Shown piece after piece: positions 18,417 through 58,906 of a stretch of 64,000 bases of DNA. Every line of letters starts with the position of its first letter. Position 1 is the first letter of the stretch. The translations under genes and the position numbers were made by a program. The notes beneath the pieces are model-generated. The model saw only the letters and a list, made by a program, of their open reading frames with translations, had not been told where the DNA came from and made no database searches. Source of the DNA: a virus (Duplodnaviria > Caudoviricetes); IMG/VR virus record IMGVR_UViG_3300037424_000434, positions 64,001 through 128,000 of that record; one strand, 5' to 3'.

Positions 18417-18848
18417 TCATGTTGTTTTTTGCTTCGTATTTTGACCGGGGGTGCCTGTAATTTTACCCAATTTCATGAGAGCATTGGAAAGATCCATCGA
18501 GTGACATCGATCTGGTTTGGCCCCAAAGGATTTCATTACATTTTTCCATTCACGTCCATGGGATCTTGTTTCTCCCCAAACAAGATCTTGCACCAGATGA
18601 GCGAATTCGTGAACCACAGTTTCTTCAATATAATTCTCACTATATTCCAAAAGAGCGGCTTCGTGTAGATGCATGATGAATTTCTGTTGTTCTACTATTG
18701 TAACCGCCATTCCCGCAACCCTCGTACCCGCGAGATCATATTTTACTTCTACATTCGGAATCACAACACCGTAAATAACTGTGGTTTTTTTATTCAGTTC
18801 ATGTATACGATCCCAAACCTTCATCTTCAGATCATCAAGTCGCTTCAT
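18417..18848 (-). CDS. SprT-like zinc metalloprotease
   Basis: ETVVHEFAHL (HExxH), HGREWKNVM and RCH motifs of the SprT family. Confidence 0.85.
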   Translation of the reverse strand: MKRLDDLKMKVWDRIHELNKKTTVIYGVVIPNVEVKYDLAGTRVAGMAVTIVEQQKFIMHLHEAALLEYSENYIEETVVHEFAHLVQDLVWGETRSHGREWKNVMKSFGAKPDRCHSMDLSNALMKLGKITGTPGQNTKQKTT

Positions 18849-19062
18849 TTTGGAATCCTTTCTGTTGACGTATATACTATATCAAAAGGATGAATGAATG
18901 TCAAACAAAAAGGGATGAGCAAAAACCTATCCCCCCCCTAGTTCACTATTTGTATATCTTGAATTTTTTGAAGAATTTCCTGTTATCACCATAAAATCGG
19001 TTCTATGGCTAGTGCGGGTCGTGCTGCCGGGGGACTTCCGGTCCCCTCTCTTTTTCCGGCTT

Positions 19063-19305
19063 TCATACGTCCAACCCTCTGTTTCTGAGCCAGAGCAGTT
19101 CGTTTTCCTTTTTCTTTTCTCGGTTAGTCGGGTGGGCCATTTCGGCGGATACCAACTCGCGGCGGGCAACGGTTAGGAAGGCGTCCGCCGCCTCCCATTC
19201 CTGCAAATTTTCGTTTTTTTCGGCGATGCGTACCGCTTTTAGGGCTTCTTCGTATCTCTTTTTAGCTTGGATTCTTTGTGCGATCATTGTCTTGTCTCCT
19301 TGCAT
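19063..19305 (-). CDS. Hypothetical basic helical protein
   Basis: GAGG RBS; 80 aa; follows a TTGACA...TATACC-type promoter region. Confidence 0.55.
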   Translation of the reverse strand: MQGDKTMIAQRIQAKKRYEEALKAVRIAEKNENLQEWEAADAFLTVARRELVSAEMAHPTNREKKKENELLWLRNRGLDV

Positions 19306-19613
19306 TGATTTGCCCTCAATATAGGTATACTATAAACCCCCTTTGGTTTATTGTCAATAAAAAACACAAATAAGTGATTATCAATCTTTTACTTTTTAAA
19401 AAACTTTTCTTTTAAAAGATCCACAATTTTTGTTTGAATCTCTGTTAAATTTTTTCCAAAGTTCGGAAATATCGCATAAACAACAGCCGTTCCCACGAAA
19501 CCTAATACCAGAGTACCTAAATATGATAACATAAACTACCTCCTACAAAAAAATAAGTCCAAAATTATTTATGTTTTATTTAGGTTTTTGGCTACAACAT
19601 AATCGACTTCAAC

Positions 19614-19975
<362 letters not shown>

Positions 19976-19979
<4 letters not shown>

Positions 19980-20191
19980 GAAAACACCTTCCAGTTGATT
20001 ATAGTCACATCACACACCCGTTTTAATGTTTTTCTGTCTACTACAAGTTCATCTATTATTTGTTCTTGTAACGCCCGAATATCATCCATTCCCGAAATTT
20101 CTGGGTAATATATTTCTATGTTTCCTAAAAATCTATTGCCATTGGATTCTATTGCTTCATATGAAACGAAATATTTACAATATGGCAACAT
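19976..20191 (-). CDS. Hypothetical protein
   Basis: 71-aa ORF in the operon. Confidence 0.5.
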
Positions 20192-20378
20192 AGACGCCCT
20201 CTTCGTTTGGAGTCAATACGATGATCCCAACAGGGGCATATTCATTTCCGATAAAAGACGAATAATCAAATCCATCATATTTCAGATACAATGCAAGCTC
20301 GGGGTCAACATATCCAATAAACTCTTCCATGATAATCTCCTTTGTTTTTCGTTACGGTATCATAAATGATTCTATACG

Positions 20379-20675
20379 TCAAGGTAGTTTTCTGTTTTGG
20401 GGTTTCATCGTTTCCATGGTATCATATTGTGTTGGCCCAGTTTTCCTCTTATTCCAAGGAATGACAGCACGGGCATACAACCTAGACCACAACCTATTAA
20501 AACCTTTGCTGTAATAGGTGGGTAGTTCAACCCGAGGGCCACATGAATGACATTCGTCACATTGCACGGCATAGACTCCCCCACTATATATACCGAAATA
20601 GGCTTGTCCTCCGCAATGAGGGCATGGTTTTACTCCCTTAGTGAATCGAAACACTTTAATTCCTATCCCAAACAT
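20379..20675 (-). CDS. Lar-like restriction-alleviation family Zn-finger protein
   Basis: KPCPHCGG...VQCDECHSCGP...AVIPWNKR pattern. Confidence 0.6.
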   Translation of the reverse strand: MFGIGIKVFRFTKGVKPCPHCGGQAYFGIYSGGVYAVQCDECHSCGPRVELPTYYSKGFNRLWSRLYARAVIPWNKRKTGPTQYDTMETMKPQNRKLP

Positions 20676-40576: not shown

Positions 40577-42289
40577 ATGAAAAAAGGTTATCTTATCACA
40601 GAATGTTCTCATGATCTAGAAATCAATGAGGATGGAAAAGATGGGAAGAGTTTGTATATTACAGGGATCTTTTCCTCTTATGGTCTTCGTAACAATAATG
40701 GTCGAGTCTATGAAGAAAAGACCATGAAACGTGAAGTAAATAAAATTTTAGAAAAGATCGGAAAATCTTCTTTGTGGGGGGAACTTGGCCATCCACCCTG
40801 TGTTTTAGGGGATACCGAAATTTTGACCAATAATGGATGGAAACAGATACAAGATATTGATGATGACGAAATAGTTGCAACTCTTAACCCCGATACTAGA
40901 TTAATAGAATATAACCAAATCACAAAAAAGGTTATAAATCCTTTCAATGGTAAAATGGTTAGATTTAAAAACAGGCAAATTGATATTGCGTTTACACCTG
41001 ATCATAGACACTTGTTGTTTGATAAGTATGACAAGCCTTATTTTGAAACCACGGATAATATCAAAAATTCGGAAACACTTAAAATAAGAAAATCGTATAT
41101 ACCTAAAACGGGTATATGGTTAAGTAGTGAACAAGATGATTCCACTATAACATTGAAAGGTCTTGATAGTGTGTCTTCATCTAACTACAATCATTCTGTA
41201 GATGTGGTTGTGGATTTGATGACGTATGTAAGGTTTTTTGGTATATGGTTGGCTGAAGGTAATGTCACAAAAAATAACAGAAACCGTGTCACCATATATC
41301 AAAATGAAGGCCCTACTGCCGATATGATTCGGGAAATGTTAAGCGGATTCCCAGAAGAAATGGAATGGGGAGAAACAAATGATAACGGAAAAATATCTTT
41401 TAGTTTATCTGATGGTAGATTGGCACAACATCTAAAACCACTGGGTACATGCTACACAAAATATATACCAGAGTCGGTGAAATGTCTTGGTATAGAGTAT
41501 CTTGAGGAATTGTTGTATTGGTTTGGTCTTGGAGATGGTCGAGGTTTTTTGAATAACGACACAAAAAAAGACATTTTCTCTGTATCAGAAAAATTGGTTG
41601 ATGATTTTCATGAGGTCGCATTTAAATGTGGAATGTCTGCTAGAAAAACGGTTAGTCATTGTACTAACGATTATATTTTTGCAGGGAGAGTTATAGAGTC
41701 AATCAATAAATCTCCTTTGTACCATCTAAAAATATATACAACAAGTCGTATATATACCGATGATAGATTTATGGGATTTGAAGAGGAGGAATACGAAGGG
41801 CTTGTTTATTGTGTACAAGTACCCAATCAAAACTTCTATATAAGAAACAATGACAGTGTATCATTTTTTACGGGTAACTGCCCCGAAGTGAATATGGATA
41901 AGATTGCCATCAAACTTGAATCCCTTGAGTGGCAGGGAAAGGATCTATACGGAAAGGCAAAAATTCTTGATACTCCTATGGGTAATATTGCAAAGACTTT
42001 GGTTAGAGAGGGTAATATTGGTATATCCTCACGTGGCCTCGGAACCGTAGCAGAAGATGGAACCGTCAATGAGGATTATAATCTTTTAACATGGGACTTG
42101 GTGACAGACCCATCGAATAACCCTAGTTGGGTAAAAGGTATATATGAATCAAAGACTTGGGATATGGGTGATCGATTTGGCGAGGCTGTAGTCGAACAAG
42201 AAGAAGAGACTATATCAGAGCAATACGCAAAGAATGAATATTACAAATATATTCTTGAGAATATCAGGAAAATAGAAAAGAACTTGTAA
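40577..42289 (+). CDS. gp21: Prohead protease (gp21-like) containing an intein
   Basis: RNNNGRVY, WGELGHP, GKAKILDTPMG, GISSRGLG, DLVTDPS; spliced product 210 aa. Confidence 0.95.
   Translation: MKKGYLITECSHDLEINEDGKDGKSLYITGIFSSYGLRNNNGRVYEEKTMKREVNKILEKIGKSSLWGELGHPPCVLGDTEILTNNGWKQIQDIDDDEIVATLNPDTRLIEYNQITKKVINPFNGKMVRFKNRQIDIAFTPDHRHLLFDKYDKPYFETTDNIKNSETLKIRKSYIPKTGIWLSSEQDDSTITLKGLDSVSSSNYNHSVDVVVDLMTYVRFFGIWLAEGNVTKNNRNRVTIYQNEGPTADMIREMLSGFPEEMEWGETNDNGKISFSLSDGRLAQHLKPLGTCYTKYIPESVKCLGIEYLEELLYWFGLGDGRGFLNNDTKKDIFSVSEKLVDDFHEVAFKCGMSARKTVSHCTNDYIFAGRVIESINKSPLYHLKIYTTSRIYTDDRFMGFEEEEYEGLVYCVQVPNQNFYIRNNDSVSFFTGNCPEVNMDKIAIKLESLEWQGKDLYGKAKILDTPMGNIAKTLVREGNIGISSRGLGTVAEDGTVNEDYNLLTWDLVTDPSNNPSWVKGIYESKTWDMGDRFGEAVVEQEEETISEQYAKNEYYKYILENIRKIEKNL
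40799..41878 (+). mobile_element. 360-aa LAGLIDADG intein in the prohead protease
   Basis: Begins CVLGDTEILTNNGW, ends VYCVQVPNQNFYIRNN...TGN followed by Cys; FGIWLAEG and FGLGDG motifs. Confidence 0.93.
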
Positions 42290-51424: not shown

Positions 51425-52609
51425 ATGAAGAAAAATTATGTTCTGGATACAAATGTACTATTAGAAAATGAGAATTGTATTAAGATTTTAAGGAATGGAG
51501 AAGAGAATGGTATATACATTCCTGCCACAGTTATTGAGGAACTGGACACCCTAAAGAGAGACAAAAGAAAGAGACATCAGGTCATGAGAGCTATACACGC
51601 TCTCAGTGAATACAAAGACTATATCACCATTATACATAATGGCACTAAACATGAATCCCCTGATAACTTTATCCTAAAAGAAATTCAAGCCAATATCGAT
51701 AAGATAGAGAATCCCATATTCGTGACAAATGATAATCTTCTACGGTTTAAAGCAGAAAAAATGAACATACCCTCCGAAGATTTTAAAGATAGCAACCCAT
51801 TCCAATCAGAATCCCAGAGATATACAGGGTTTGTTAATGTAGATGACGGTGAAATCTTGGAAAAGAACTGTTACTATTGGAAAGAAGGAAAACTGCATTT
51901 CAACAATCATTACGGTGAAGAGAGTTTGGTTGTTGACAGAGAAGTATGGAAGGTCGCTCCTCGCAGCCAATACCAAAAAGCAGCAATGGATCTGATCATG
52001 AATGATGATATTGATCTAGTAACAATCCAATCTGAGGCAGGCTTTGGGAAAACATATTTGACCCTTGCTGCAATGTTTGATCAGGTGTTTGAAAAGAAAA
52101 AATTTAAAAAGATTTTTGTATTCAAAGCAAACATCGAAATTGGAAATGAGCTTGGATTTTTGCCGGGAGATGTGGGGGCAAAAATGTATCCATATTTTCG
52201 ACCTATCCAAGATTTAATGGAAAAGCTCCATGATCTTCGACCAGCCAATAGAGCATGGGAAGACCCAACAGAAAACACTCCATTACTTAATCGCAAATGT
52301 GTTGAGATGTTGCCGATCAATTTCTTGAGGGGCATGAATATCGATAACGCTATTGTTCTTATAGACGAAGTTCAAAATCTAAGCAGAGACGAATTGAGAA
52401 CAGTTCTTTCTCGTATGGGGGAGAATGTTAAGGTCATTTGTACAGGTGACGTTAGACAAATAGATAATATCCATTTAAATCAAGAGAATAATGGATTGAA
52501 TTGGATGGTGAGACTGTTTAAAGGGCAAGATAATTATGGTCATATAGTGCTTGGAGGCAGTAAATCAAGGGGTCCAATAGCAGATTTAGTGCGCGAAACA
52601 AAATTATAA
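51425..52609 (+). CDS. phoH: PIN-PhoH protein
   Basis: PIN YVLDTNVL; AGFGKT, GFLPGD, INFLRG, LIDEVQNL, VICTGDVRQID. Confidence 0.93.
   Translation: MKKNYVLDTNVLLENENCIKILRNGEENGIYIPATVIEELDTLKRDKRKRHQVMRAIHALSEYKDYITIIHNGTKHESPDNFILKEIQANIDKIENPIFVTNDNLLRFKAEKMNIPSEDFKDSNPFQSESQRYTGFVNVDDGEILEKNCYYWKEGKLHFNNHYGEESLVVDREVWKVAPRSQYQKAAMDLIMNDDIDLVTIQSEAGFGKTYLTLAAMFDQVFEKKKFKKIFVFKANIEIGNELGFLPGDVGAKMYPYFRPIQDLMEKLHDLRPANRAWEDPTENTPLLNRKCVEMLPINFLRGMNIDNAIVLIDEVQNLSRDELRTVLSRMGENVKVICTGDVRQIDNIHLNQENNGLNWMVRLFKGQDNYGHIVLGGSKSRGPIADLVRETKL
52515..52573 (+). repeat. phoH 3' segment, duplicated at 53656..53714
   Basis: 53/59 nt identical by manual alignment. Confidence 0.9.
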
Positions 52610-52619
52610 TATCACACGA

Positions 52620-53708
52620 TTGGATCAATGTCTAGATATGAAAATAGATTATTCGCATAGATTCAGGGATAACGTTGAACTTGTTGGATACGAAATGATA
52701 GGAGAATATGTTAATAGTAGTGTTCTTGTGAAATTAATATGTGATAGTGGTCATATATTTTCAATTAGACCAAATAACTTTAATAATGGACAACGTTGTT
52801 CTGTGTGCTCAGGGAAGAACAGAGAATATGCAAAATCCTCTATGGTCGAGTTGTTATATAAAGAGGGATATATGCACAAATCTGAGTATATAAACTCCAA
52901 TACAAAAATGAAATTACTTTGTCCAGAAAATCATGAATGGAACGTAACCCCGAACGATTTCAAAAAAGGAATTAGATGTCCTAAGTGTGGGAACAAGTGC
53001 AAAGAACAATCTAAACAAGATTTTATTAATTTGGTGGAGGAGTGTAGTTATACATTGCACGAAGAATATACTGGAGTGATGAATCGAGTGCTATTAGAAT
53101 GTGATAGAGGCCATAAATATAGAACAAGACCAAACGATTTTAAAAAAGGTTATAGGTGTAAAAAATGTTATACCGAAAACGTTATACAAAAATCCTTTGA
53201 AGGTTTTAAATTTATATTAAATGAGAATGGATATAAATTGAAAGATGATTATATAAATTCGACGACAAAAATATACATCATATGCCCCGAAGGTCATGAT
53301 TGGTATGTAGCTCCAAATGATTTTATTAACCACAATACACGTTGTCCCCATTGCCAAGGAAGTTCTGGTCAGAGAAGATTACAAGAATTTCTGACAAAAC
53401 ATATAGACAGAGATGTAGTATACAATGACCGCAAGACACTAGATGGATTGGAATTAGATATATACTATCCTGATCTAAAAATAGCAGTGGAATATCAAGG
53501 TGATTATTGGCACACACTACCAATGGCCCTAATAAGAGATAAAAGAAAAAGAATGTTATGCGAGAAAAAGAACATAAAACTAATAGAAGTATGGGAAAAA
53601 TATTATGTTACAGATGAAGATAATATAAACAATGAAGTGTTGGAGAATATAAAATTGTTTAAAGGTCAAGATACTTATGGTCATATAGTGCTTAGAGGCG
53701 GTAAATAG
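52620..53708 (+). CDS. Free-standing Zn-ribbon-repeat/Vsr-like endonuclease ending in a PhoH-derived tail
   Basis: Four CxxGH/NH...RCxxC repeats; LELDIYYPDLKIAVEYQGDYWH; ends LFKGQDTYGHIVLRGGK. Confidence 0.8.
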   Translation: MDQCLDMKIDYSHRFRDNVELVGYEMIGEYVNSSVLVKLICDSGHIFSIRPNNFNNGQRCSVCSGKNREYAKSSMVELLYKEGYMHKSEYINSNTKMKLLCPENHEWNVTPNDFKKGIRCPKCGNKCKEQSKQDFINLVEECSYTLHEEYTGVMNRVLLECDRGHKYRTRPNDFKKGYRCKKCYTENVIQKSFEGFKFILNENGYKLKDDYINSTTKIYIICPEGHDWYVAPNDFINHNTRCPHCQGSSGQRRLQEFLTKHIDRDVVYNDRKTLDGLELDIYYPDLKIAVEYQGDYWHTLPMALIRDKRKRMLCEKKNIKLIEVWEKYYVTDEDNINNEVLENIKLFKGQDTYGHIVLRGGK

Positions 53709-53805: not shown

Positions 53806-54138
53806 GTGAGATATGACGAATATGTTAAACGACCAAACGAAGAACATGAATACACAGAAGAACAGATTCGAGAGGTTGTTAAATGTAAAACCGATTTGAT
53901 GTATTTTATACGCAACTATATATATATTGTACATCAGGATTCGGGCGTACAGTTGTTTGATCCATATGACTATCAGATAGATTTGTTAGAAAAATTTCAA
54001 AATCATAGATTTAACGTATGTCTATTATCTCGACAATCGGGTAAATGTTTAGAGGGTGATACTGTCATAAAACTTCGTAATAAGACCACGGGCGAAATCA
54101 AAGAAATAACAATGGAAAATTTTTTTAACCAAACATAA
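53806..54138 (+). CDS. terL: Terminase large subunit fragment 1: extein 1 (80 aa) plus IntN-1 (30 aa)
   Basis: YFIRNYIYI...YDYQ..LL...RFNVCLLSRQSGK then CLEGDTVIKLR...; IntN at 54046..54135. Confidence 0.93.
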   Translation: MRYDEYVKRPNEEHEYTEEQIREVVKCKTDLMYFIRNYIYIVHQDSGVQLFDPYDYQIDLLEKFQNHRFNVCLLSRQSGKCLEGDTVIKLRNKTTGEIKEITMENFFNQT

Positions 54139-54239
54139 ACCCGATTACTAGGCTAATAAAAATACAGTAAATTTTGGTATTATTGGTTATTGAGAGATAG
54201 ACAAAGAAAGTGTGATTAAAGAATGTTTGGAGTATTTGA

Positions 54240-54947
54240 ATGGCAGAATTTGTTGAAGAAAAATATAGTGATGAATGGGAAGTAGAAACACCCGATGGAT
54301 GGAAAGATTTTGGGGGTATAGGGAAAACAATAGAATATCAAGTATATGAGGTTTGTTTTACTGACAACACTTCTATTAAATGCGCCGATACTCATATTTT
54401 TATATTAAATGGAGTCGAAGTTTTCTGCAAAGATTTGGTATCAGGTAATGTAATAGATTCCATTGAAGGAACCTGTAAAGAAATATCACATATTATCAAA
54501 ACAAAAGATTGTGATAATATGTATGACTTGTTGGGTGTTGATGGTTCAATATATTATACTGACAATGTTGCTTCTCACAACTCAACTATTGTTGCCGCTT
54601 TTGCTTTATGGTATGCATGTTTTCACGGACACAAAAATATCGGTATAGTCTCGAACAAAGAAGAATCAGCAAAAAACTTTCTACATCGATTAAAGTATAT
54701 GTATGAACTAATGCCGGGTTGGTTGAAGCCCGGTGTACCCGGTTGGGCGCAAAAGACTGTTGAATTCGACAATCATACGAAAATTTATACTGCTGCAACA
54801 TCCAAAGATTCATTCCGTGGTGAGCCGATGGGGATGTTGATTTGTGTGACTGGAGATAACACCGTGAAATTACGGGATAAAATCACTGGTGAAGAGGTGA
54901 CAATGACAATGGAAGAACTGGCCAATGACCTGAGAATGGATTCATGA
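54240..54947 (+). CDS. terL: Terminase large subunit fragment 2: IntC-1 (114 aa), extein 2 (87 aa), IntN-2 (34 aa)
   Basis: ...YYTDNVASHN|STIVAA (junction 54581/54582); ...FRGEPMGMLI|CVTGDNT (54843). Confidence 0.93.
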   Translation: MAEFVEEKYSDEWEVETPDGWKDFGGIGKTIEYQVYEVCFTDNTSIKCADTHIFILNGVEVFCKDLVSGNVIDSIEGTCKEISHIIKTKDCDNMYDLLGVDGSIYYTDNVASHNSTIVAAFALWYACFHGHKNIGIVSNKEESAKNFLHRLKYMYELMPGWLKPGVPGWAQKTVEFDNHTKIYTAATSKDSFRGEPMGMLICVTGDNTVKLRDKITGEEVTMTMEELANDLRMDS

Positions 54948-55807
54948 CTACATACAAAAGAGACTACAAAGAAGAGTTCAACGATTTGGTTGAAAGTGAA
55001 GGTTATGTCCTTTTATCTGAGTACAAAAAAGACAAAGAACGTGTTGGTATAAAGTGTCCGAATGGTCATATCTATAAAATAAAACCAAATACTTTCAAAA
55101 ATGGTTGTAGGTGTTCATCTTGTCCTACAAAAAGACAAGTAAAATCAAAACAAGAATTTTTTGATATGTTATATGTTGATGGTTATGTTATCACAACAGA
55201 ATACGTTGATGTAAGAACAAGGGTGGGTCTGATGTGTCCAAAAGGTCACGAATGGACCACTACCCCTCATGGATATAAAAAGGGGTATAGGTGTTCGATA
55301 TGTGCAGGAAATAATCATAGTTACGCTAAAGACGAATTTTTAGGGATGATAGAGGAAGAGGGTTATAGTTTAATATCAGATTATATCAACTCAACAACAA
55401 GAATAAAAATTAAATGTCCAAATGGACATGAATGGGATGCAATACCATCCGAATTCAAACATCAATATTTTAGATGTCCTATATGCGCGGGTAGTTCTGG
55501 CCAAAGATTATTACAGGAAATGTTATCAGAACATATTGATGATGAAGTGGTTTATAATGACCGCAAAATTCTTGGTGGACTTGAGTTGGATATATACTAT
55601 CCAAAATTGAATATTGCAATAGAATATCAGGGTAATTATTGGCATTCATTGCCAGAAGTTGTTAAACGAGACGAAAGAAAACGACAATTATGTGGTAATC
55701 TTGGTATCAAGTTAATAGAGGTATGGGATACTGATTTTTTAAACGACAAACAAACTGTTATTAAATATGTTAACGAGGAAAGGTGTTTATGGAACAGGAA
55801 TTCATAA
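54944..55807 (+). CDS. Free-standing Zn-ribbon-repeat/Vsr-like endonuclease between IntN-2 and IntC-2
   Basis: CPNGH/CPKGH...RCxxC repeats; LELDIYYPKLNIAIEYQGNYWH; overlaps both flanking terL ORFs. Confidence 0.85.
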   Translation: MTTYKRDYKEEFNDLVESEGYVLLSEYKKDKERVGIKCPNGHIYKIKPNTFKNGCRCSSCPTKRQVKSKQEFFDMLYVDGYVITTEYVDVRTRVGLMCPKGHEWTTTPHGYKKGYRCSICAGNNHSYAKDEFLGMIEEEGYSLISDYINSTTRIKIKCPNGHEWDAIPSEFKHQYFRCPICAGSSGQRLLQEMLSEHIDDEVVYNDRKILGGLELDIYYPKLNIAIEYQGNYWHSLPEVVKRDERKRQLCGNLGIKLIEVWDTDFLNDKQTVIKYVNEERCLWNRNS

Positions 55808-57813
55808 AGAATAGTAGGTATGAGATATATGGGGAGTCTGGTTGGGAGAATTTTGATGGTGTTGTTGTTAATACAGGAGACTTTGATATTTATGAAATAA
55901 AAACCGATAACCATTCAATAAAATGTACAGATAAGCACAAAATATATACCAGCGAGGGCGTGAGTACAGCCGATGAGGTGGAAAGGGGTGACATTTTATT
56001 TATACAGGGTGGCATTACCGAAGAGGTTATATCAACACAATATACAGGCAAACAAAACACTACATACGATATATTCAACAGTGATTCACATAAAGTCCAT
56101 ATAAATCAAATACTTACGTCTAATTGTGACGAATTTGCGTTTGTTGAGCCGAGCTGGAAAGCAGAAGAATTTTGGGCATCAAACTACCCAACCATTTCAG
56201 CCGCAGAGACTTCTAAAATTATTATCATCTCATGTGTTGCGGGGGATACCTATGTTTACACAGATAATGGCGTAAAACAAATATCCAATATTATCGGTGA
56301 TAGATGTGTTGGTGGCCATGAAATAGAATCCTATGGGGTATTGGGTAAAGATAAGATAAGAGGTGGCCGTTTAATCGTCAATAGCGGTATTACAAAAACC
56401 AGAAAAATCATCACAACAAATTCGGAATTGGAGGGCAGTTTAGACCATAAACTATGGTCATCAAAAGACGGTGTTATTGGTTGGCATAAAATATCTGAAC
56501 TAAATGAAGGAGATTATGTTTCACTGCAATATGGAATGAATGTATGGGGTAATAATGATCATATTGGATATGTATCACAGAAGAGAAGAAATAAACAAGG
56601 GAAAAGTTTAAATGTCGAAAATATAACAGAGGATTGGGCATATTTATTTGGATTATATATATCAGAGGGGTGTGCTGATAAGTACAGACTCAATATTTCA
56701 TGTGGCGATGATATATCGGATATTTTTGATAGACTGGGGCTTTCATATTCATGCAGTGATGGTATGCATTATGTTACAAGCAATCTATCATTAATAGAAT
56801 TATTAGAGCACGTTGGGTTCGATATAGCTAAAAACGCACCAGATAAAATAATACCAGACAGATTGATGTGTATGTCAAAAGAAAATATAGCGGCAATGTT
56901 GAGTGGGATTTTTGATGGTGATGGCTTTTCTCGAAAGGACAAAGGAACCATAGGAATAGGATTGTCTTCAAAAAAACTCGTTCAACAGATACGAGTGTTG
57001 TTAATGAACATGGGTATGTTGGGTGAGTGGTATGAGGTGGAATCAAAACCAACAGATAAGGTCAAAGTCCATTCAATACAACACAGATATCATTTGGATA
57101 AATCTTCATCTAAGAAGTTTTATGAAGAAATTGGTTTTAGACTAAAAAGAAAACAATTAAATGAGAACATTTTAGGTAAGGTCAATGAACCAAAAAATGA
57201 CATTATACCATATTCAAAAACTTTTATTGACGGTAAAGGTATAGTCAAGGATGTCGAACAAGTTTTGGGTTCATATGTATATAATAGAGGATTGTCTGAT
57301 AACATTTCAAGAGGATTGATGATTAGGATAAAGGAATCCCTTGGTGATACATTCAGCGAAGAGATTCATGAATATTTTAACAGGAATGTATCAGAAAACA
57401 TCAAGTGGTGTAAAATAAAAAGCATAGAAGAATCAAAAAATACGGTTTATGATTTCTCATTACCCGATAATATCGATGATGAGTGGTGCCATTCAGTTAT
57501 ATATAATGGATTTATAGGTCATCAGACACCTAACGGTCTGTATAATAAATTTCATGAAATATACAAAAACGCAGACGAAAAAACCAACTCATTCATAGCA
57601 ACTCGATATGATTATTCAGCCGTTCCGGGCAGGGATGCTGAGTGGGCTAAAGTTCAGAGAATGAACCTAGGGCCAATCAAGTTCCAACAGGAATTTGGAT
57701 GTTTTTTTCAAGATACTGTAATCACTATACAAAATGAAGAAACAGGTTTAATCGAAAATATTACCATAGGGGAACTAAATAAACGAATGGGGCAAGAGAT
57801 TGGTCATGAATAG
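55783..57813 (+). CDS. terL: Terminase large subunit fragment 3: IntC-2, extein 3, contiguous intein 3, extein 4, IntN-4
   Basis: ...ILTSN|CDEFAFV (56124/56125); KIIIIS|CVAGDT (56233); FIGHQ|TPNG (57525/57526); FQQEFG|CFFQDT (57700). Confidence 0.93.
   Translation: MFMEQEFIKNSRYEIYGESGWENFDGVVVNTGDFDIYEIKTDNHSIKCTDKHKIYTSEGVSTADEVERGDILFIQGGITEEVISTQYTGKQNTTYDIFNSDSHKVHINQILTSNCDEFAFVEPSWKAEEFWASNYPTISAAETSKIIIISCVAGDTYVYTDNGVKQISNIIGDRCVGGHEIESYGVLGKDKIRGGRLIVNSGITKTRKIITTNSELEGSLDHKLWSSKDGVIGWHKISELNEGDYVSLQYGMNVWGNNDHIGYVSQKRRNKQGKSLNVENITEDWAYLFGLYISEGCADKYRLNISCGDDISDIFDRLGLSYSCSDGMHYVTSNLSLIELLEHVGFDIAKNAPDKIIPDRLMCMSKENIAAMLSGIFDGDGFSRKDKGTIGIGLSSKKLVQQIRVLLMNMGMLGEWYEVESKPTDKVKVHSIQHRYHLDKSSSKKFYEEIGFRLKRKQLNENILGKVNEPKNDIIPYSKTFIDGKGIVKDVEQVLGSYVYNRGLSDNISRGLMIRIKESLGDTFSEEIHEYFNRNVSENIKWCKIKSIEESKNTVYDFSLPDNIDDEWCHSVIYNGFIGHQTPNGLYNKFHEIYKNADEKTNSFIATRYDYSAVPGRDAEWAKVQRMNLGPIKFQQEFGCFFQDTVITIQNEETGLIENITIGELNKRMGQEIGHE
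56233..57525 (+). mobile_element. 431-aa LAGLIDADG intein with C-terminal Gln
   Basis: CVAGDTYV start, LFGLYISEG and LSGIFDGDG motifs, VYDFSL...NGFIGHQ end, +1 Thr. Confidence 0.92.
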
Positions 57814-58906
57814 CATGACAGAAGTAATTAGCAACACAAAATATAAAATTCTAACCCCCACAGGATTTCAATATTTTTCTGCAATACAAAAACTAAAGAA
57901 ACCAACCATTAGGTTTATATTTGAAGATGATTCTGATTGTACCGTGTCCACAGGCCATAAATTCTATATTGATGGTAAAATATTATTGTCTGATGACGTG
58001 GTGATTGGTGATAGTCTCTACCACCAAGATAAATGGTATACCAAAGTTGTTGGTATAGAGTATTTAGGGGAATCAGATGTATATGATTTAATGGACGTAT
58101 CCAATGGTAACTTGTATTACGGAAATGGTATTTTGTCTCATAATTGTGAGTTTATAGGATCAAGTAACACTGTCATTGATGGAAAAACTCTTGAGAGGCT
58201 TATGAAGCACCGTAAAGAGCCCGAGTCGTTGGATATGGGGGGTAAGCTGCGTATATGGGAGAAACCCAAGCAGGGGGCAACCTACGTCCTTGGAGTGGAT
58301 ACATCCAAGGGTATTGGTGGTGATTCGAGTGTAATTCAGGTAATAAAGATATTAGGTGTCAATCCAATCCAAATGCGACAGGTGGCGGTGTGGGAAGATA
58401 AATTTACAGATGTTTACAAATTTGCCGAAGTTGTCAATAAAATGTCGTATTATTATAATGATGGATATTTGATGGTTGAGAATAACGCCGAGGGGTCAGT
58501 AGTTGTTCAGAGACTGTGGTGGGAATACGAGAACCAAAATTTGATAAATACAGGTGGTAAAGTCAAAGACCTTGGTATTCGCGCTACAGGTAGCACCAAA
58601 CCTCGGGCCGTTCTTCTCATGAAGAAAGTTCTTGAAGACAGAATGATCGAAATATATGACGAAAGAACTGTTGCCCAGATATCAGACTTTCAAGACTTGG
58701 GTGGCAATAAGTTTGGTGGCGTTAATATAAACGACGATTTGGTTACCTCTTTGTATTGGGCTATATATGTCATTGAGATGCAAGTATTCGACGAGTCATT
58801 TACTTTTTCGGAAGAACAGGACGAGGAAGATGATTTCTGGGGGGATTTTTTGAGCGACTGGGAAGACGAGGCCCGCGAGGTTGATTGGTCATGGCTTCAT
58901 GATTAA
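57806..58906 (+). CDS. terL: Terminase large subunit fragment 4: IntC-4 plus extein 5 (nuclease domain, 253 aa)
   Basis: KILTPTGF...YYGNGILSHN|CEFIGSS (58144/58145); YVLGVDTSKGIGGDSS, MVENN, NDDLVTSL. Start may be 57806 or 57815. Confidence 0.93.
   Translation: MNSMTEVISNTKYKILTPTGFQYFSAIQKLKKPTIRFIFEDDSDCTVSTGHKFYIDGKILLSDDVVIGDSLYHQDKWYTKVVGIEYLGESDVYDLMDVSNGNLYYGNGILSHNCEFIGSSNTVIDGKTLERLMKHRKEPESLDMGGKLRIWEKPKQGATYVLGVDTSKGIGGDSSVIQVIKILGVNPIQMRQVAVWEDKFTDVYKFAEVVNKMSYYYNDGYLMVENNAEGSVVVQRLWWEYENQNLINTGGKVKDLGIRATGSTKPRAVLLMKKVLEDRMIEIYDERTVAQISDFQDLGGNKFGGVNINDDLVTSLYWAIYVIEMQVFDESFTFSEEQDEEDDFWGDFLSDWEDEAREVDWSWLHD

Follow-up and report, generated by a model that had tools for sequence, protein, structure and literature searches.

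Can an enzyme whose gene is broken by several related split inteins be reassembled in the right order, and what would its pieces become if the intein halves did not keep to their own partners? This question is raised by a locus in the IMG/VR record IMGVR_UViG_3300037424_000434 (Duplodnaviria; Caudoviricetes), the 235,765 bp genome record of an uncultured jumbo phage (98% complete according to CheckV). The window, i.e., the whole stretch of DNA analysed, covers 64,000 nucleotides (positions 64,001 to 128,000 of the record). Within it, at 53806-58906, a T4-type large terminase (TerL) is split over four open reading frames (ORFs). The single large-terminase gene has been invaded at four catalytic motifs, that is, Walker A, Walker B, IIIS/TPNG (a slash marks the insertion point) and the ATPase-nuclease hinge, by three atypically split inteins, with N-halves (IntN) of 30-37 amino acids (aa) and C-halves (IntC) of about 113 aa, and by one contiguous LAGLIDADG intein. 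As judged from sequence, fragments 2 and 3 would be the middle parts of a natural system of tandem protein trans-splicing in four pieces, each bearing a C-half and an N-half from two different lineages, and pairing in this system is probably correct often enough.

A large terminase gene in four pieces

The plus-strand ORFs between 53806 and 58906 encode five pieces of 110, 235, 287, 676 and 368 aa. The 110-aa piece runs to ...SRQSGK and continues into a 30-aa tail beginning at Cys, and the 287-aa piece is a zinc-finger/nuclease protein. According to Pfam/NCBIfam, piece 2 contains Terminase_6N, piece 4 a LAGLIDADG domain and an intein N-terminal region, and piece 5 Terminase_6C together with an intein C-terminal region. 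Fragment 2 of the terminase (54240-54947) is composed of IntC1 (114 aa, ASHN/S end), an 87-aa extein and IntN2 (34 aa, after GMLI/C). Fragment 3 (from 55783 or 55789 to 57813) is composed of IntC2 (LTSN/C end), a 36-aa extein, the contiguous LAGLIDADG intein, a 58-aa extein and IntN3. A preliminary description of this DNA had assigned to both fragments an IntC at the start and an IntN at the end; this arrangement was found again, with C-halves of about 113 aa and N-halves of 34-37 aa, and the span to which it referred (54046-58144) has the first residue of IntN1 and the last residue of IntC3 as its exact limits.

Once the inteins are cut out, exteins of 80, 87, 36, 58 and 253 aa remain, forming a 514-aa protein that aligns with T4 gp17 at both sides of each junction; the alignment covers the stretch from Walker A to Walker B, as well as the hinge and the nuclease domain. 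The insertion points are SRQSGK/S (Walker A), GMLI/CDEFAF (Walker B), IIIIS/TPNG and QQEFG/CEFIGSS (start of the nuclease half), and four splicing events would restore the 514-aa terminase. Since exactly one terminase nuclease domain is present in the 98%-complete genome record, the phage must rebuild this enzyme.

The same fact bears on the idea of a pseudogene in decay or an artefact of assembly, in whose favour nothing specific speaks and whose probability we consider practically negligible. Besides the terminase being single in the genome, every frame is open, ribosome-binding sites are present, and start and stop codons are coupled: the ATG of the endonuclease gene (54944) overlaps the stop codon of fragment 2, and the likely ATG of fragment 4 (57806) overlaps the end of fragment 3. 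Moreover, the ratio of nonsynonymous to synonymous substitution rates (dN/dS) is below 0.35, and the layout recurs in independent ENA, JGI, Logan and NCBI assemblies. The coordinates of all the elements are reported in Table 1.

Table 1. Elements of the split terminase locus (positions in the window; s1, s2 and s4 are insertion sites).
Element	Position	Strand	Remarks
Extein 1, up to Walker A (SRQSGK)	53806..54045	+	start codon uncertain, GTG at 53806 used
IntN1, 30 aa from Cys1, N-half at the Walker A site (s1)	54046..54135	+	
101-nt spacer, without ORF	54139..54239	.	
IntC1, 114 aa, block B ADTH, SHN/S end, opens fragment 2	54240..54581	+	GGAG 8 nt before ATG
Extein 2, 87 aa, ATPase core from Walker A to Walker B	54582..54842	+	
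IntN2, 34 aa, N-half at the Walker B site (s2), closes fragment 2	54843..54944	+	
Free-standing endonuclease gene (treble-clef zinc-finger repeats and MTES_1575/Vsr-like nuclease)	54944..55807	+	between the halves of intein 2
IntC2, 112 aa from likely ATG 55789, block B TDKH, TSN/C end, opens fragment 3	55789..56124	+	
Extein 3, 36 aa, Walker B (CDEFAF) to IIIIS	56125..56232	+	
Contiguous intein, 431 aa, LAGLIDADG endonuclease domain, GHQ/T end	56233..57525	+	
Extein 4, 58 aa, TPNG to QQEFG	57526..57699	+	
IntN3, 37 aa, N-half at the hinge site (s4), closes fragment 3	57700..57810	+	
IntC3, 113 aa from likely ATG 57806, SHN/C end	57806..58144	+	closest to CatC of the three C-halves
Extein 5, 253 aa, RNaseH-like nuclease domain of TerL	58145..58903	+	

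Intein identity, catalytic residues and selection

Separate ORFs, each provided with a start and a ribosome-binding site of its own, encode the N-halves (30, 34 and 37 aa) and the C-halves (112-114 aa). Block A (C-x-x-G/Q-D-T/N) is located on the 30-37-aa N-halves only, and the C-halves hold block B (ADTH, TDKH and STGH) and blocks F/G. Among solved structures, the C-halves match CatC (6DSL_B) best, the expectation value (E) being 1e-15 for IntC3, 7e-8 for IntC1 and, more weakly, 0.15 for IntC2. When C-half profiles were built from same-site relatives, the three profiles matched one another over their full length with 97-99% probability and 21-25% identity, which indicates that all three belong to one family of atypically split inteins. 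A search of the PDB with IntN1 and IntN3 alone gave no match, the queries being too short. Among 14,004 ORFs, each N-half matches a family model at E of about 1e-13 to 1e-14; the likeness of the N-halves is therefore due to homology rather than to chance. The strong similarity between IntN1 and IntN2 pointed out previously holds as well, amounting to 47-48% identity (47% over 30 aa, and 13 of 24 positions in the strings then quoted).

As for the residues required for catalysis, Cys1 is present in all four inteins, and the +1 residues are Ser, Cys, Thr and Cys, respectively. Each of the three split inteins terminates in Asn, and the contiguous one in Gln. Every split pair keeps the block B His; at the penultimate position, pairs 1 and 3 have His and pair 2 has Ser. 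Purifying selection acts on the intein parts: against relatives, the C-halves give dN/dS values of 0.12-0.33 and the contiguous intein a value of 0.18. On these grounds, we infer that the pairs would carry out protein trans-splicing. Two features weigh against this reading, i.e., the atypical penultimate residue of IntC2 (TSN) and the terminal Gln of the contiguous intein. The GHQ end of the latter is alike in the window and in the related locus L007.

The IntC2 end also lies at the heart of another explanation, according to which the intein halves splice no longer and act as non-covalent docking domains holding the four pieces together; such docking has been reported for a fragmented phage ribonucleotide reductase (PMC3045599). 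The absence of the usual penultimate His from IntC2 would fit this explanation, and so would the fact that relatives at the IntC2 site terminate in Gln (NHQ and VCQ in L007 and L009). On the other hand, no pair lacks Cys1, the block B His, the terminal Asn or the +1 nucleophile, and a bulky domain retained at the cuts, which fall within the P-loop and Walker B, would obstruct catalysis. Docking without splicing thus appears very unlikely.

Recurrence of the split terminase in uncultured phages

A DNA search against isolated phages gave no match, and a protein search gave only distant T4-like terminases with less than 60% identity. A protein search with fragment 2 retrieved eleven proteins of the same IntC1-extein-IntN2 build (34-74% identity), as well as proteins of other builds. 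When 153 loci from assemblies and IMG/VR were scanned with the family models, 20 distinct IntC-extein-IntN middle fragments were disclosed in related uncultured-phage loci, in all site combinations. Along the spliced protein, the insertion points group at positions 81, 163-168, 171-177 and 262.

The number of inteins differs among these loci. L003 harbors an uninterrupted terminase, 70% identical to the spliced product of the window; L001 and P0010 contain contiguous mini-intein versions of the Walker A intein; L005 and L016 have a single split at the hinge, L009 and L014 double splits, and L011 a triple split without the contiguous intein. L007 possesses the full intein set of the window, and all three of its gaps hold an endonuclease gene. 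An endonuclease gene is also located in the site 1 gap of L009 and in the site 4 gap of L011, and the position of the 101-nt spacer of the window is occupied by an endonuclease gene of 342-374 aa in L007 and L009.

Some of the relatives exhibit peculiar organizations. Another recurrent split site lies directly past Walker B (L012:4902-5831 and L065:2325-3497). In L012, an 11-aa extein (CDEFAFVPKEF), the shortest natural middle extein observed, is placed between IntC2 and another N-half, and unrelated genes (an epimerase and PIG-L) are interposed between the terminase pieces. In L014 (7965-9833), a GIY-YIG endonuclease is fused in frame before the hinge-site C-half, giving a 620-aa protein with the order endonuclease, IntC and nuclease domain. 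In L084 (7066-8723), two neighbouring ORFs each start with a Walker A-type C-half (junction ILSHN/TSTAAGYL), an apparent tandem duplication of the second terminase piece.

Site-specific lineages of the split inteins

The C-halves of the window are 22-23% identical to one another, and the N-halves share 47% (1 vs 2), 37% (1 vs 3) and 21% (2 vs 3) identity. Mean C-half identity is 44% within a site and 25% between sites, and same-site N-halves from different genomes average 43% against 34% between sites. In a tree of 157 C-halves, 11 changes suffice for the five TerL site labels, compared with about 57 when shuffled (25 vs 81.5 if the non-TerL "other" rows are treated as a sixth group); the Walker A clade has a support of 97 in the Shimodaira-Hasegawa-like approximate likelihood ratio test (SH-aLRT). 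The low identity of the C-halves, together with the clustering of the tree by site, indicates that the three split inteins are independent residents belonging to old site-specific lineages and not recent duplicates. The genome of the phage itself holds two further C-halves of the same atypically split family, one in a helicase and one in a Rad50-like gene, and the five co-resident C-halves have pairwise identities of 22-32%.

Twenty rows with non-terminase exteins nest inside the Walker A clade; as an example, a C-half of this lineage opens a clamp-loader-like AAA+ protein (SHN/TS...) in L006 (5953-7128). The Walker A lineage evidently moves between the P-loop sites of different proteins. A different kind of movement is suggested by IntC2 of the window (55789-56124), which is 91% identical to its counterpart in L011 (1675-2013), with a synonymous divergence (dS) of 0.27, whereas the dS of the flanking exteins is saturated. 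At this site, the partner N-halves of the two loci are 58% identical and the gap genes are unrelated. This looks like a recent lateral replacement of the downstream half alone.

Orthogonality or cross-reaction

The arrangement of fragments 2 and 3 had been likened to split-intein circular ligation of peptides and proteins (SICLOPPS). The comparison stands for the order of the chain, since in both cases an IntC precedes and an IntN follows the extein. It fails for the mechanism: in SICLOPPS, the two halves belong to one intein and cyclisation is designed, whereas in the window, the halves on one chain come from different inteins (C-halves 22-23% identical, in separate clades), and cyclisation would need cross-reaction. 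The partner of IntN2 is IntC2, located on the next fragment; IntC1 and IntC2 are 22% identical and fall in different clades. The true analogue of fragments 2 and 3, as far as their sequence organization is concerned, is the middle segment of an engineered tandem trans-splicing system with orthogonal split inteins (Shi and Muir 2005, as cited in PMC11766414; PMC12707363). In both, the middle segment begins with the C-half of one intein and finishes with the N-half of a different one, and a correctly assembled product demands pairs that do not cross-react. The engineered systems use unrelated inteins, whereas that of the window is natural, consists of four pieces and employs three inteins of one family.

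The outcomes of cross-reaction follow from topology and are those foreseen in the preliminary description: extein 2 would be cyclised or concatenated if IntN2 reacted with IntC1, and skipped if IntN1 reacted with IntC2. It was further suggested that such mis-splicing might be purposeful, the exon-skipped or cyclic terminase forms tuning DNA packaging. Topology alone does permit these products, but extein 2 covers, in a single Rossmann-type ATPase fold, the stretch from Walker A to Walker B. Because it spans this ATPase core, forms lacking extein 2, or consisting of it alone, lack the active site and cannot be motors. Moreover, close relatives have none (L003), one (L005 and L016) or two (L009) of these inteins, which leaves no room for a conserved isoform programme. 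The idea that alternative forms tune packaging hence finds no support and is extremely unlikely; cyclic extein 2 and exon-skipped products would be at most dead-end waste, not regulators.

Several factors are expected to favour correct pairing. The strong divergence of the C-halves would help, as would the charge of each lineage: the Walker A N-half is near-neutral and its C-half very acidic, and the hinge N-half is acidic and its C-half milder. Mean charges are +0.9 (N-half) and -12.8 (C-half) for Walker A pairs and -2.3 and -0.1 for hinge pairs; those of the three window pairs are -1/-15, -4/-11 and -5/-5, and over 62 pairs the charges of the two halves are negatively correlated (Spearman rho = -0.60). 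The order of synthesis might provide a kinetic advantage as well, since each C-half would emerge once its own N-half, encoded by the upstream cistron, already exists, and ahead of the foreign N-half on its own chain. Finally, the layout persists under purifying selection in many phages, which counts for a sufficient specificity.

A number of observations weigh against specific pairing. Within sites, the charge correlation vanishes (rho 0.02), so that the charge pattern is purely between lineages and, with about three independent lineages, represents weak evidence. The consensus of the N-halves is near-identical across sites (C-[VL]-x-G-D-T-x-[IV]-x-[IV]-R-[ND]-K-x-T-G-E-I-x-x-I-T-I-x-[DE]-[LF]-Y), and MAFFT placed Walker A N-halves on the columns of Walker B N-halves. 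Hinge-site C-halves that are 91-94% identical naturally partner N-halves sharing just 44-63% identity, a range that includes IntN1 vs IntN2 (48%); likewise, the IntC2 of the window and that of L011, 91% identical, go with N-halves of 58% identity. This tolerance suggests that the C-half reads a small conserved skeleton common to the three lineages. Co-resident N-halves are not more diverged than others (34.9% vs 33.8%, p = 0.47), although with n = 15 the test is weak. As for characterised inteins, the N-halves of GOS-TerL and AceL-TerL are reported to be interchangeable (review PMC11766414), and in the 24 x 24 matrix of Pinto et al. (2020, PMC7090010), cross-talk occurred mostly among inteins whose split leaves a short peptide and a large piece.

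Structure prediction did not discriminate between the possibilities. When IntC1 was modelled with cognate IntN1 and non-cognate IntN2 competing, the complex scored 0.02 with a low predicted local distance difference test (pLDDT) value, and this model speaks neither for nor against either pairing. In the AlphaFold2 model of natural fragment 2 (17-row alignment), the IntN2 tail forms a hairpin and a helix (pLDDT 77-87). This shape was considered as a sign of docking into the empty IntC1 and discarded, as the tail takes the same shape (pLDDT 80-89) in the control P0010, whose IntC1 is filled by its own contiguous N-part; the AlphaFold2 signal is therefore uninformative on docking.

It might be supposed that the three terminase pairs, and the two same-family pairs elsewhere in the genome, cross-react appreciably, and that cyclic, concatemeric and exon-skipped waste is tolerated as long as enough correct terminase is made. 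The shared N-half consensus, the acceptance by C-halves of N-halves of 44-63% identity, the lack of extra divergence of co-resident N-halves and the published cross-reactivity and short-peptide cross-talk just mentioned all speak for this possibility. Nevertheless, the five C-halves share no more than 22-32% identity and occupy separate clades, the terminase motor is oligomeric, so that truncated or mis-joined subunits could poison it, and many phages have kept the layout under purifying selection. On the whole, appreciable cross-reaction is rather unlikely, though far less so than docking without splicing. Mutual orthogonality of the three pairs is plausible, and cross-docking of non-cognate halves would still be a fair worry. 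Concerning the degree of specificity, a preference in vivo for cognate pairs that is sufficient for the phage seems quite probable; the chances of strict biochemical orthogonality may be placed close to even, or slightly below. The broadest version, in which the co-resident pairs, at least five in number (N-halves of 26-37 aa), would all be mutually orthogonal in vivo, with specificity residing in few N-half positions and in lineage charge, and four-piece splicing would be widespread, is advanced only tentatively, the odds being somewhat against it.

Comparison with known split inteins and fractured genes

IntC3 is located at a .../CEF[IL]GS junction, which we take to be the AceL-TerL site. 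The inteins of the window share with AceL-TerL, GOS-TerL and the consensus Cat intein (PDB 6DSL) an N-half of 25-37 aa, a C-half of more than 100 aa and the same host gene. However, the published AceL-TerL and GOS-TerL cases are single splits, whereas three split inteins and a contiguous one coexist in the gene of the window; in addition, its Walker A and Walker B lineages are just 22-23% identical to the hinge lineage, and IntC2 barely matches CatC (E 0.15).

Dassa et al. (2009, PMC2677866) described fractured genes, in which a free-standing endonuclease gene is found between split-intein halves on one strand; one of them is a terminase whose C-half is unusually long. This layout fits site 2 of the window (endonuclease gene at 54944-55807) and all three sites of L007. 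Those genes are fractured in two, whereas that of the window is in four pieces, and the endonuclease gene has been lost from two of its three gaps, site 1 having the 101-nt spacer and site 4 overlapping ORFs. We found no published natural gene needing at least two split inteins, in a search that missed most subscription journals and does not prove absence.

Further inteins and neighbouring genes

The two further atypically split inteins of the genome lie outside the window. The fourth (locus L156, genome positions 18710-22018) cuts a gp41-like helicase in the P-loop (GFK/C...SHN/S). The first piece of this helicase continues for about 80 aa past its N-half, and the second terminates in a canonical long intein N-half (CLHVDT...SGKH), being thus a middle fragment that mixes two intein types. 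The fifth (locus L157, genome positions 180328-183642) cuts a gp46/Rad50-like gene at NGAGK/ and consists of a 26-aa N-half and a 122-aa C-half, with a 358-aa endonuclease-like ORF in the gap. A signal of the intein N-terminal region alone is present near 228.2 kb of the genome, in a 1091-aa frame.

In the window, a 570-aa ORF on the plus strand (40577-42289) harbors a contiguous LAGLIDADG intein inserted after ...GHPP/C. Upstream of the terminase, also on the plus strand (51425-53708), a PhoH gene terminates in ...LFKGQDNYGHIVLGGSK..., and the gene that follows it, a zinc-finger/nuclease homing endonuclease, terminates in ...LFKGQDTYGHIVLRGGK; the endonuclease bears a near copy of a stretch close to the PhoH C-terminus.

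Significance of the split terminase

Short-tag, that is, atypically split inteins are prized and few of them have been characterised; orthogonal sets are scarcer. The three related pairs in one essential enzyme, and five in the whole genome, represent an experiment of nature on the specificity of inteins. Should the pairs be orthogonal, they would provide a toolkit of short-tag split inteins and a training set for the rules of specificity; otherwise, they would show how cells live with mis-splicing. From a biological viewpoint, the locus suggests that an essential late enzyme can hinge on four protein-splicing events, and that, in many large uncultured phages, selfish inteins accumulate at P-loop, Walker B and hinge motifs. 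Should the orthogonality of the five pairs prove true, natural four-piece tandem trans-splicing would represent a distinct and widespread mode of gene expression in large uncultured phages.

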